A DNA stretch of 64,000 bases from a virus. Under the pieces are notes generated by a model. It worked only from the letters and a program-made list of their open reading frames with translations, was not told the origin of the DNA and made no database searches. Within the stretch, counting starts at the first letter, position 1; every line of letters begins with the position of its first letter. Location of the stretch: the IMG/VR virus record IMGVR_UViG_3300035696_000005, positions 96,001 to 160,000 of that record. The stretch is one strand, 5' to 3'. Position numbers and translations under genes: made by a program. This document shows, piece after piece, positions 2,750-22,288 of the stretch.

Positions 2750-3226
2750 CTAGAGGTAATACTTCTTAGCCGAGGCTTTGGAAATAAATGCATGAAGCCC
2801 GTGAGAGCACTGACCAGCCGCTGCCGCAAACTTATACGCCGGTTTATGCCATTTACCAACCACCCAGCGAAATTTCCCCTCCGCAGATTTCTTTTTCTTG
2901 TTCAGTTGGGAATAAATGATATTGTAGGTGTGGCCGGGGAAGAATTCTTTCTCACTGATCGGGTTTCCACTGCGGCTTTCTGCTTTGACAACAAACGCGG
3001 CAGAAACTCTGAGCTTGTCGTGGCGACTGTTACCATTCCTTCTCTTTGCATCCGCAGGAACATAAAGAGTCAGGATCGCAACATTTTTTCTGCGCCCATT
3101 CTGATCAGGGACAATCACTTTCTTAAATGCGATGAAATCCTTACCTACCTGTGGCACCCGTGCCATTCTTTCATTTTCTTTAAGCAACTTCTTAATCAGT
3201 GCGCTGCTTGGTTTTTTTCTTGTCAT
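2750..3226 (-). CDS. DUF5758-like phage protein (paralogue 2)
   Basis: FKKV...ILTLYVPADAKRRNG...KLRVSAAFVV; SD AAGGAG. Confidence 0.55.
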   Translation of the reverse strand: MTRKKPSSALIKKLLKENERMARVPQVGKDFIAFKKVIVPDQNGRRKNVAILTLYVPADAKRRNGNSRHDKLRVSAAFVVKAESRSGNPISEKEFFPGHTYNIIYSQLNKKKKSAEGKFRWVVGKWHKPAYKFAAAAGQCSHGLHAFISKASAKKYYL

Positions 3227-3299
3227 CTGAATCTCCTTTTTTAAATCAGTGAGGTGAGGAACTCAGCTCATGTACACTCGCACACTAGTTCCCCACCAC

Positions 3300-3378
3300 C
3301 AAAGACATCCGTGGTTTCGCTCCACAGACTACCGGTACAACAATTCCCGGAGTGCTTACCTCTTTACACCAATGTCAC
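3300..3378 (-). ncRNA. Degenerate tRNA-like cloverleaf
   Basis: GACAT/ATGTC acceptor-like stem, GTG..GGTAAG..CAC D-like arm, CCGG/CCGG arm, GTGG-AGCGAAA-CCAC T-like arm; no CCA. Confidence 0.4.
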
Positions 3379-3405
3379 CTGCCAGCCAGGATACGCCTGG
3401 CACGC

Positions 3406-3612
3406 CTATTGAAATCGCATGCTTCTACACTCGTATTCCTTATGCCCGTCTGTGATGCATTGACGAACGAGGCGTTCCCTCTCTGTCACGCTTTTGGGCG
3501 TGACGCTCAGAAACACAAGTCCCATCGACAGAAGAAACGTAAGGAATGCGATAACGACCAAAAGCTCTCCGATTTTCTTTTTCTTTTCAATTCTCGCCAA
3601 ATCCTCCCTCAT
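3406..3612 (-). CDS. Small membrane protein
   Basis: One hydrophobic helix; ATGA overlap with upstream vWA stop. Confidence 0.65.
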   Translation of the reverse strand: MREDLARIEKKKKIGELLVVIAFLTFLLSMGLVFLSVTPKSVTERERLVRQCITDGHKEYECRSMRFQ

Positions 3613-4694
3613 TCCCGGTCCCACCCTTCAACTTCATACAGAAACTTCGTCCTACCCAAGAGCTTGCGGGTGTAAGAAGTACTCTGGACGAACGGAGTAT
3701 ACTGCTCCAGGCTTGTCGGACGAATACGAACAGTTCCGTGTTCAGGCAAACCAAGAAGCTCACGAGCCCTGCGACCCGTGTACATATCGCCCGTTCTCTT
3801 ATCGAGAAGGACGATCTCCTTATGGGCTTGGATGTTTTCCGACTTCGTGAATTCATAGAAACCACGGCCCTTTACATAAGGAATGCCGTTTGCCTCAACG
3901 AATCCTTTGATCGTCGTATCGCTATCCACATCCATGACTTGGAAGCGCCCCGCAGGAACAGCAGAAAAATCAGCTGCCCCGAACGCAGTTCTTCCGCCGG
4001 AGCGATTCAGAAGCGTGTTAAACACACGCTCCATGCTTCGATTCATGCGGTGACTGCGAACGATTTCCTGCTCGAAGTTCTGGAGCTGTTCTTCACCCAC
4101 CTGACGGTAGCAGATCGCCATGATCATGTCCGTCACTTGAGAGAACTGGTCCAGGTTCAAGTGAAAGCCTCCGGTCTTCTCCGCAATCTCACGGTAGAAG
4201 CTTGTGGCATGACGATGGTTCAGTGCCTGAACGCCGTAGACATGGATGCCAGACTCCAAAAGAAGACCCAGCTCGTTTCTCCAGTTGATTTTCTTTTTGT
4301 TCTGACGGTCGGTAGGTCCGTGCGGAATGTCATCCCCGATCATCGCAAGGACCTTGGATTTGCCAGATGTCCAGGAGATATCGGTGCGTGCCTCGTGAAG
4401 GACGAGCTCATAGCATTCCTCAGAGTCGCCACCACCCGTTGCCTCCACTGTATCCACAAAGCGACAGATCGCACGGACATCGTCCGAGAGATCAAAATGC
4501 TTTGTGACATAAGTTGAGCCCGCGTCACAGTAATCCCCGTGAGCGATAATCCCAATACGGATATTGGGGATCTCCCGGAAAAGGCGGGTGACGTTTTCCT
4601 TCAGGGTTCGACGTACCTGAGTCAAGCATGGGTACATCGATCCTGTGGTATCGAACGAAAATACGACTTCAATGTTTTCAGTTGGCCTACTCAT
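3609..4694 (-). CDS. vWA-domain protein
   Basis: MIDAS DTTGSM, GGGDSEE, IGDDIPH; extra C-terminal domain. Confidence 0.85.
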   Translation of the reverse strand: MSRPTENIEVVFSFDTTGSMYPCLTQVRRTLKENVTRLFREIPNIRIGIIAHGDYCDAGSTYVTKHFDLSDDVRAICRFVDTVEATGGGDSEECYELVLHEARTDISWTSGKSKVLAMIGDDIPHGPTDRQNKKKINWRNELGLLLESGIHVYGVQALNHRHATSFYREIAEKTGGFHLNLDQFSQVTDMIMAICYRQVGEEQLQNFEQEIVRSHRMNRSMERVFNTLLNRSGGRTAFGAADFSAVPAGRFQVMDVDSDTTIKGFVEANGIPYVKGRGFYEFTKSENIQAHKEIVLLDKRTGDMYTGRRARELLGLPEHGTVRIRPTSLEQYTPFVQSTSYTRKLLGRTKFLYEVEGWDRE

Positions 4695-19302: not shown

Positions 19303-19684
19303 GGCAAACCTCTTTGGTTTCCTCTGCAATCAATTGCGTGTAGTGGTTCAAGAGCTCATGGATCTTCTTCTCACTGGGCTTATTGCAGCAATGAGGGTTG
19401 TCCTCACATTTGCCGTACACTGGCTTACACGGAACTCTCTTCTCAATTTGCTCACGAGTCCTACCACGAATCAGACAGTACACGATGTGCCTATGGCGAA
19501 AATCAAAACGGAGCTTAGCAAGCTCAGCTTCAATCGCTCCAAGCTCTTTATTGTGCCAGCTGGTATCGCCGCCCGCCTTAGTAGTAACGCTGACCGCTTG
19601 TCTAAAGATGGGCTTCTTTTGTTTGATCAGATCTGCGGTGAGCTTGAGCTCGTTTTTGAGTTTGAGTAACGTCATCGATTTCAT
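19274..19684 (-). CDS. Conserved phage hypothetical (RHxHIxYxxxRG motif)
   Basis: SD AAGGAG before ATG 19684; FRHRHIVYCLIRGRTREQIE. Confidence 0.7.
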   Translation of the reverse strand: MKSMTLLKLKNELKLTADLIKQKKPIFRQAVSVTTKAGGDTSWHNKELGAIEAELAKLRFDFRHRHIVYCLIRGRTREQIEKRVPCKPVYGKCEDNPHCCNKPSEKKIHELLNHYTQLIAEETKEVCHETVCASAG

Positions 19685-20021
19685 TTTTGTTCTCCTTAGC
19701 CCGAAAAGTAATAATCGCCTCTGAGACCTGCCGGGTGTCATAGTCACAAAGGAGTTCAGCAATTTCTTGATTGAGTGGAACACGAAGTATCCGGTTTTTC
19801 CGGACAGTTGAAAGAGCGTAAAAACCAGTGCTGCTCTTTTCGCCTTGAGAAAGATTTCGCCCAAGCGAAATATCCACCGGCCTGATCTCATAAGAGGGAT
19901 CAAGCTTCGTTAGAATATGCTGGGCAAGGGAGCGACTAAAAGTGATTCGAAAGATGAGCGACCCTTTGCAGATCGCGTATCCTGAGTTTCCAGAACAACC
20001 TAAACAAACCTAATGTTCCAT
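19602..20021 (-). CDS. ORF with in-frame TAG at codon 4 (read-through candidate, 139 aa)
   Basis: AAGGAG SD, ATG GAA CAT TAG, then an open frame continuous with the 19602-19877 ORF. Confidence 0.5.
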
Positions 20022-20562
20022 AAGCTATTTATCTCCTTCATAAAAATATTTGTCAATCGCGCCTCTTATTTAGCTCTGCAACGAGACGTAAGTTTCACCA
20101 GTCTTAGTTTGTTAGTATTTCGATAACAAACTAATACCTGCAAAACCAGTTTGTTTTTCTTGCGTCAAATCCATGCTGCGGCGCGACTGTGGGAATGTGT
20201 GGTCCTATAGCGAAGAAGGTCCGATAGACAATGAAAATTACGGACGAGGGTTCTTATAATAAAAAATGTTTGTAGAGTCAGCGTTATTGCTTAGGGTTGC
20301 ACATTATGCACATTGCGCATAAGGTCAGTTGTAAGCGCCTGTTTTTATTTCTTTTCCTTAGAGCACCGAATGTGTAGAAAAATGTGTAAAAAACGTCAAT
20401 GTGTGGCTACCCCACGCCGCGTTATAAAGCAAATCAATCGATTAAGCTATATTTTGGTTAACAATCAACTAAAGTGCTTTTGACACACTTCTCAGACCCG
20501 CTGTGTTGAATTACACATTGAGGGTATTTCGCGCACACGCCTACACAGTACTAAAATGGTTT

Positions 20563-20811
20563 TTAACGCGTTGCTTCGGAGCTCATCTTCTTGAGCTTGT
20601 GAGCTATCTTCCTAAACCAGCGGTGGTCTTCACCTTGGACCTTTTCCAAGATAGGGCAGAGCGCAAGCGCTGTGATCGCGACGATCTCTTCGGGATCTTC
20701 TGTCTTTTCTAGGTAAAGAAGAAGGGCGCTGGCGATAGCCGCCAAGTTCCCTTCTTCTAAAGCGACACGGTACTCTGGAACGGCAAAGGGCAACTTTTCA
20801 AGGAACTTCAC
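20563..20811 (-). CDS. Hypothetical protein
   Basis: 82-aa ORF following Hsp20. Confidence 0.55.
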   Translation of the reverse strand: MKFLEKLPFAVPEYRVALEEGNLAAIASALLLYLEKTEDPEEIVAITALALCPILEKVQGEDHRWFRKIAHKLKKMSSEATR

Positions 20812-22075: not shown

Positions 22076-22288
22076 TCACAATCGACCTATAATCATGACC
22101 ATCTCCTTTCGTTTAGGGTTTAGAGTGCAGCCATCCATGGCTGAGAATTCCATCCTTGGTAGGTTCAGTATTCCATAAGAAGGCAAGAATTGCTAGTCGG
22201 CGAGCCAAAATACGCCGTCTTTTTCGCAAAGCCAAACGACTTTCCTTATGCGGGAACCATCTTCATACCACAGGCTGATTTGTTTCAT
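22076..22288 (-). CDS. ORF with in-frame TAG at codon 32 (read-through candidate, 70 aa)
   Basis: ATGA overlap with the upstream stop; final TGA abuts the next SD; MKQISLWYEDGSRIRKVVWLCEKDGVFWLAD*QFLPSYGILNLPRMEFSAMDGCTLNPKRKEMVMIIGRL. Confidence 0.55.

Follow-up and report, generated by a model that had tools for sequence, protein, structure and literature searches.

The 64,000-nucleotide stretch of viral DNA analysed here (the window; positions 96,001 to 160,000 of the 182-kb IMG/VR record IMGVR_UViG_3300035696_000005) carries on its minus strand a small gene, called X below, with an amber codon close to its start (the lock), and downstream of it a tRNA(CUA) gene (the putative key). X extends from 20021 to 19602 and comprises 139 codons when the amber is counted as read. 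A Shine-Dalgarno sequence (SD), AAGGAG at 20037-20032, lies 10 nt 5' of the ATG that opens the lock, ATG GAA CAT TAG (20021-20010; Met-Glu-His-amber); the amber occupies 20012-20010, and the next base is G. The frame then stays open for 135 codons, with no ATG, GTG or TTG between the amber and the GTG at 19877. The SD, the ATG GAA CAT TAG and the open frame had been reported in a first-pass annotation of the window and were verified on the minus strand, as was its order of co-oriented genes: X, the RHxHI ORF (open reading frame), a Pth2-like gene and the tRNA. The same annotation had also pointed to a TTGACA at 20056-20051; a promoter scan gave no acceptable -10, and one spaced at 17 bp would run into the SD; the TTGACA is therefore not counted as a promoter. 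X ends in a TAG (19604-19602) with a back-up TAA at 19580-19578. An active suppressor would partly read this terminator too and run on to the TAA 8 codons later, adding 7 residues plus the suppressor-inserted residue. The RHxHI ORF (19684-19274, minus, 136 aa) is served by a separate SD, shares 82 nt with the 3' end of X and belongs to no known family; apart from the syntenic locus L016, no relative was found in phage records, Pfam, PHROGs or the PDB. The Pth2-like gene (19302-19006, minus, 98 aa) has no lock in this phage. The tRNA(CUA), predicted by ARAGORN at 18995-18918 on the minus strand with G73 and an encoded CCA, begins 10 nt past the Pth2-like stop and 607 nt past the stop of X.

X proved to belong to a widespread family of phage proteins. 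With the post-amber translation as query, tblastn matched Myxococcus phage Mx1 (E 2e-16), Klebsiella Stephanstirmvirinae and about 20 Acinetobacter T4-like phages, and further matches came from Alishewanella, Synechococcus and Pseudomonas phages. Run exhaustively with X, phmmer returned 126 representative clusters, many aligning from query residue 2-5. Searches of the region's DNA against 50,697 phage records, single-protein pattern scans of IMG/VR and a word-indexed protein search with the window protein had given no match, which reflects the low sensitivity of these methods, given that the family was later recovered by tblastn and phmmer. Approximately 45 related phage loci (L numbers below) were compared, and each was traced upstream in the frame of the conserved domain to the nearest stop. 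In 23 independent lineages this stop was a TAG, 1-4 codons before the first conserved Cys, with an SD-served ATG and 0-7 sense codons ahead of it; the SDs of relatives are equivalent to that of the window. Amber-locked members occur in cultured phages of Acinetobacter, Klebsiella, Pseudomonas, Synechococcus and Alishewanella and at many metagenomic loci. The pre-amber peptides differ (Klebsiella has M-S, Acinetobacter M-K-H, Pseudomonas Astolliot M-K-E, Synechococcus BUCT-ZZ01 M-G-S-D-G-S, and L025, whose X is nearest to that of the window at the N-terminus, M-G-H), and in the window the signal likewise lies within the first ~9 codons and before the first conserved Cys (Met-Glu-His-UAG-Val-Cys). 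Of 21 lineages, 14 have A directly 3' of the gate TAG, 6 have G, 1 has C and none has U, so that 20/21 have a purine. A purine after UAG is a context that favours amber suppression. Additional internal ambers were found in X of L009, L020, L027/L032, L039 and L042; over 3,773 nt, L042 and L014 differ at two positions, one of them a CAG of X that reads TAG in L042, which indicates that X can accept a new amber where the tRNA is present. In L047, L051 and L055, X begins with ordinary sense codons, and the amber sits in an overlapping upstream Pth2-like gene (L051 and L055 with tRNA(CUA) alongside). L059 is the sole member seen with neither a lock nor a tRNA within its 3.2-kb contig.

The type of lock was found to covary with the anticodon of the neighbouring tRNA. 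Counting only loci at which lock and key were both determined, we obtained 29 matched pairs in five classes and 0 mismatches. A tRNA(CUA) lies on the same strand, 0-2.3 kb from X, in 17 amber-locked lineages (ARAGORN or Rfam). L013 starts with ATG-TGA and has a tRNA(UCA) 95 nt downstream, and L017 combines an internal TGA with a tRNA whose loop is UUUCAAA. In a +1 group, the SD-served ATG lies in the -1 frame, overlapping a domain-frame TGA as ATGA, and the ATG frame soon stops. A CATT occurs a few codons in at 8/8 loci of one class (Mx1, L018, L026, L029, L031, L033, L035 and L040), and all eight are flanked by a tRNA (ARAGORN 'Ile(aat)') whose loop, N-GU-AAUG-A-N, contains four bases exactly complementary to CAUU. 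For Mx1-type loci, a +1 shift on the amber (TAGC) was considered and dropped; all such loci share the CATT, and their neighbouring tRNAs have AAUG. In L010 a GATT is paired with the tRNA loop AAUC, a compensatory change, and in L030 a CCTT stands beside the loop AAGG; L022 and L028 also have CCTT on contigs too short for the tRNA. Translation showed that a single quadruplet read restores the full-length ORF in every +1 case, with an in-frame TGA kept in L010 and L026 even then. In these two loci the TGA (L010 ~3034, L026 ~2995) stands exactly where the second conserved Cys (TGY) is expected; it could be a second recoding event, decoding of the Sec/Cys type or decay. In a maximum-likelihood tree of X the lock classes were interleaved; for example, one TAG member and one +1 member form a well-supported sister pair, and L013 (TGA) is nested within a TAG clade, so the match of lock and key reflects repeated switches, not a single inheritance event.

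The first-pass annotation had proposed that X is made only when the suppressor is present, and had called this a feedback switch; the feedback is the speculative part of the proposal. The comparison strongly supports that synthesis of full-length X needs the neighbouring non-standard tRNA, through the conserved 48 codons described below, the amber in 23 lineages and the covariation of lock and key. We consider that the whole is best explained by a deliberate, conserved UAG in X that is opened by the phage's own tRNA(CUA), as one case of a lock-and-key cassette, with a probability of about 0.8. Ribosomes would start at the SD-served ATG, and full-length X would be made only if the tRNA(CUA), encoded ~1 kb downstream in the co-oriented run, out-competes release factor 1 (RF1) at the UAG; otherwise a three-residue peptide would be released. 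The shared orientation and tight packing of lock and key make co-transcription probable, and synthesis of X would have to await processing, charging and accumulation of the tRNA. Its synthesis would in this way track the decoding activity of the tRNA, as a threshold or a timer. X and tRNA(CUA) would represent a widespread type of phage cassette, in which a non-standard tRNA serves one or two small clients (X and/or a Pth2-like hydrolase) that carry the cognate signal, UAG, UGA or a four-base codon, in their first ~9 codons.

Several points weigh against this explanation or narrow it. The SD-ATG spacing in the window, 10 nt, is longish, and the RHxHI ORF and the Pth2-like gene each have their own SD, so gating by the amber need not extend to the entire unit. 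Three amber-locked loci (L011, L020 and L039) have no CUA tRNA within 3 kb (the other loci lacking a tRNA are short contigs), and the candidate keys of L005 and L014, which lack a D arm, were seen by eye and by folding only. In addition, the case for suppression by the predicted tRNA(CUA) is a comparative one.

If no suppressor acted, the lock might instead be an upstream mini-ORF (Met-Glu-His), with ribosomes terminating at the UAG and reinitiating there, or directly downstream, at a non-AUG codon. In ~10/23 lineages the gate TAG is followed by GTG, GTT, ATT or ATC, and one gene caller put the start of P0160 at such a GTG. However, the next codon in the window is GTT, no known start, and ACT, AAT, AAA, GCT, AGT or CAA follow the TAG in many lineages. 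Reinitiation also leaves unexplained the pairing of TAG with tRNA(CUA) and of TGA with tRNA(UCA), the internal ambers and the quadruplet members, and we regard it as very improbable. Alternatively, host near-cognate tRNAs could read the UAG when RF1 is scarce or inhibited, so that X would sense termination capacity. Such a device would be analogous to prfB autoregulation, and a weak baeRF match lies at 20563-20811, but the lock covaries with the adjacent anticodon, including sense-codon quadruplets that involve no release factor, which makes an RF1 sensor very improbable.

The part of X upstream of the GTG at 19877 bears on a further alternative, namely that the true product is a 91-aa protein from this GTG, the upstream frame being a remnant and Met-Glu-His-TAG a chance or regulatory mini-ORF. 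The GTG is the first canonical start in the frame, and relatives are publicly annotated from internal starts (89 aa in Mx1, 80 aa in Acinetobacter); PHROG 29342 ('unknown function') matches X at E 4.5e-4 over its C-terminal 80 positions only, because public annotations begin X at an internal codon. However, the 44 residues N-terminal to the GTG are conserved as strongly as the remainder of X. The conserved domain (20006-19698, minus) includes two N-terminal Cys at invariant positions and R-x-T-F-S-x-S-L-A, L-R and S-R motifs; across the family alignment the two Cys, an invariant R-x-(T/S)-F-S, L-R and S-R recur. The broad alignment was too divergent for pattern scans, and a narrower one was taken. 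The family profile matched X by hmmsearch at E 3e-40 (residues 2-104, profile positions 8-110). X is present once in the genome, and there the match to the profile extends over the TAG. Furthermore, the AlphaFold2 (AF2) model of X, built on the family alignment (pLDDT 92.9), is one compact domain, to which the part encoded before the GTG contributes strands 9-15 and 18-23 and helix 26-35; a 91-aa product would lose both strands and the helix, and a start at 19877 is hardly credible. The first-pass annotation had said that its idea would fall if homologues started at or after 19877 or if the 48 upstream codons were not conserved as protein. The idea stands, because these codons are conserved as protein and are part of the predicted fold. 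By alignment and structure prediction, X, including this upstream part, reads as a genuine, conserved protein-coding gene.

Comparisons of X with known proteins were negative. There is no Pfam model for the family, and the source records name its members only 'hypothetical protein'. No relative was found in the PDB by sequence or by fold (best Foldseek E 0.8); a wide structure search with VIA reached a best Z of 3.2, matches in BFVD were to uncharacterised phage proteins only, and a search of the ESM Atlas gave nothing usable. A search for longer, fused forms of X found none, which is weak evidence. In the representative library, P0011 (727 aa) has 13 tandem repeats matching X residues 12-46 (R-I-S-F-S-Q-Q-L-A), probably a translated DNA repeat. 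In the records of Klebsiella KP13-26 and phi1_175008, X was left uncalled and runs into an annotated 'tRNA-Pyl'. The comparison corrects the annotation of this widespread family, which is truncated at an internal start or uncalled in Klebsiella KP13-26, Acinetobacter AbTZA1-like phages and Mx1.

The use of TAG in the genome as a whole was examined in the 182-kb record under the standard code. TAG terminates 62/306 ORFs of at least 100 aa, and frames split by a single TAG are not commoner than frames split by TAA or TGA. A genome-wide scan for a short ATG ORF, a stop and a long frame lacking an early start returned 11 cases with TAG, 7 with TAA and 11 with TGA; among the 11 TAG-type frames, X is the sole case with a strong SD. 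Within this genome alone the TAG-type pattern is not enriched above chance, and the case of X stands above chance because its lock is conserved in relatives. A second amber-split ORF (22076-22288, minus), a candidate further client, gave a 70-aa readthrough translation with no tblastn match in phage records. As for a code-15-type genome, a phage-encoded suppressor tRNA is present, but in-frame TAGs are not numerous and TAG terminators are not rare; the window genome is not TAG-recoded overall. That the amber is the defect of a decaying pseudogene or an ordinary sense codon under genome-wide TAG reassignment, as the CUA tRNA and gene callers reading relatives with TAG=Q or TGA=W could suggest, is the least credible reading, given this use of TAG and an amber at the same place across distant phages. 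The cassette would explain a suppressor tRNA in standard-code phages: at least one conserved gene could be opened by that tRNA alone.

The keys themselves are diverse. The CUA tRNAs of the different lineages have unrelated acceptor stems and discriminators, and the window tRNA(CUA) shares no more than 67% identity with any of the 18 remaining tRNAs of the phage. The residue inserted at the amber may differ between lineages, because these tRNAs are unrelated; this fits the location of the lock at a poorly conserved N-terminal position. ARAGORN labels the window tRNA 'Pyl' from the anticodon alone, and the PylS model TIGR02367 had no match in the 182-kb genome. In L005 (Alishewanella phage Slickus01, 2296-2363) and L014 (an IMG/VR contig, 2806-2872), a tRNA-like element missed by both ARAGORN and Rfam lies ~40 nt upstream of X, with a 7-bp acceptor stem, a T arm, a hairpin with CUA in its loop and no D arm. 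In L012 (2800-2961), a tRNA(CUA) directly upstream of an amber-locked X contains a ~90-nt insert between the anticodon arm and the T arm, which could be an intron or an inserted element. The tRNA of L034 (527-597) has an 8-nt anticodon loop, AUUCUAAC, which ARAGORN reports as 'tcta'; the ambers of the adjoining X and Pth2-like genes are in frame, and triplet and quadruplet reading are ambiguous here. In L002, the 3' end of X (2456-2773), including its stop, overlaps the 5' part of the key tRNA (2759-2833), an arrangement also seen in L031, L033 and L038, so that RNase P processing would cut the stop codon off the X message.

The second client family is the Pth2-like protein. In the window it matched the Pfam PTH2 model at E 3.4e-4, with 21.2 bits against a cut-off of 23, and 7/10 of its relatives matched PF01981 (best E 6e-7). 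Its AF2 model (pLDDT 93) was matched by Foldseek to archaeal and human Pth2 (2zv3, 3erj, 1wn2, 1xty and 1q7s; TM 0.82-0.85, E down to 7e-8). A Pth2-like gene adjoins X in many loci, often under a lock for the same key: an amber lock in L032, L034, L046, L047, L051 and L055, and a CATT lock in Mx1, L018 and L031. In the window and in the syntenic L016, X is locked and the Pth2-like gene is unlocked. X and the Pth2-like proteins make up two unrelated client families of odd tRNAs.

The function that we favour for X, weakly supported and held with low confidence, would be the handling of tRNA or of recoding by-products. It is suggested because X pairs recurrently with a Pth2-fold hydrolase, has conserved arginines and sits in tRNA clusters, twice beside a permuted tmRNA; the predicted structure is that of an arginine-rich alpha/beta protein of unmatched fold. 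X might work with the Pth2-like hydrolase on tRNA or on stalled or dropped-off decoding products, and clean-up or control proteins would then be made in proportion to recoding activity. The family serves amber, opal and four-base keys, so X could not have one particular anticodon or a single release factor as its target. Three findings speak against this functional part: neither structure nor sequence links X to a protein of known function, the evidence for clean-up or feedback comes entirely from gene neighbourhood, and the cultured phages examined have X and the tRNA with no Pth2-like gene within 2.5 kb. The permuted (two-piece) tmRNAs lie just downstream of X, in L014 at 3342-3651 (Rfam tmRNA_permuted, 109 bits) and in L006, Synechococcus phage BUCT-ZZ01, at 2928-3346 (ARAGORN tmRNA*).

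A different role for the Pth2-like protein had been offered by the first-pass annotation, in which Met-Glu-His was a minigene like lambda bar. Both the lock and the bar minigenes consist of an SD-served ORF of 2-4 codons and a stop, with a gene for a Pth-fold hydrolase nearby. The toxicity of lambda bar depends on specific last codons and on limiting Pth. The rationale is not supported and fits poorly, because the Pth2-like gene usually lies behind the same lock as X and a locked hydrolase would be missing exactly when the minigene terminates; this argues against clean-up of failed readthrough. The window, by comparison, locks X and not the Pth2-like gene, and X is the sole client near the tRNA in the cultured phages examined.

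Other known systems share parts of this arrangement. Phages described by Borges et al. 2022 and Ivanova et al. 2014, crAss-like and Lak phages among them, reportedly reassign TAG or TGA in late or lytic genes and carry their own suppressor tRNAs. In such stop-codon-recoded phages (see also PMC10879173), as in the X cassette, a phage suppressor tRNA opens otherwise unreadable genes and would act as a translational switch. However, dozens of genes or genome blocks are recoded there, whereas the window genome keeps TAG as a stop and the cassette concerns one small gene (two in relatives), with a single lock in the first codons and an adjoining key that can also be opal or four-base. In prfB, which encodes RF2, a programmed +1 frameshift at a slippery CUU-U with an internal SD senses the gene's own product. 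In both prfB and X an early in-frame stop ties synthesis to competition at that codon, as in a sensor of decoding activity, but the downstream frame of the window X is in phase with its ATG, so that plain readthrough would suffice and no shift is involved. The X relatives of the +1 group resemble frameshift-suppressor tRNAs with enlarged anticodon loops (sufD, sufJ, SufB2) and engineered quadruplet decoders (PMC4238358, PMC8481270, PMC9094753), with a +1 step at CAUU, GAUU or CCUU beside tRNA loops that hold the exact four-base complements. Those decoders are laboratory mutants or designs, whereas the pairs in X relatives are natural, conserved and dedicated to their clients; the window itself uses the triplet UAG. 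The relatives would offer natural conserved four-base codon/anticodon pairs, a kind of pairing seen to date in laboratory suppressors and engineered systems. Our search of a literature library turned up work on recoded phages, on engineered quadruplet decoding and on classical frameshift suppressors; within that library, no natural lock-and-key cassette of the X/Pth2-like kind was described.

A broader proposal, which we advance tentatively and at clearly under even odds, is that X and the Pth2-like protein are dedicated clients of a modular natural 'private codon' system of large phages, in which the tRNA key encoded in cis swaps amber, opal and true four-base anticodons (AAUG, AAUC, AAGG) in the course of evolution and the two proteins form a licensed device that monitors or limits that tRNA. 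If true, conserved quadruplet decoding would have its first natural example here, and the device would define a new class of tRNA-activity sensor. Because several members of the X family belong to cultured phages, direct tests are feasible of the switch, of the residue inserted and of what X does, with CAUU in Mx1 and UAG in Acinetobacter T4-like, Klebsiella and Pseudomonas phages. Lastly, in L009 a GOLLD RNA (Rfam, 205 bits; 3138-3583, minus) lies 1.4 kb from the X gene with the internal amber.
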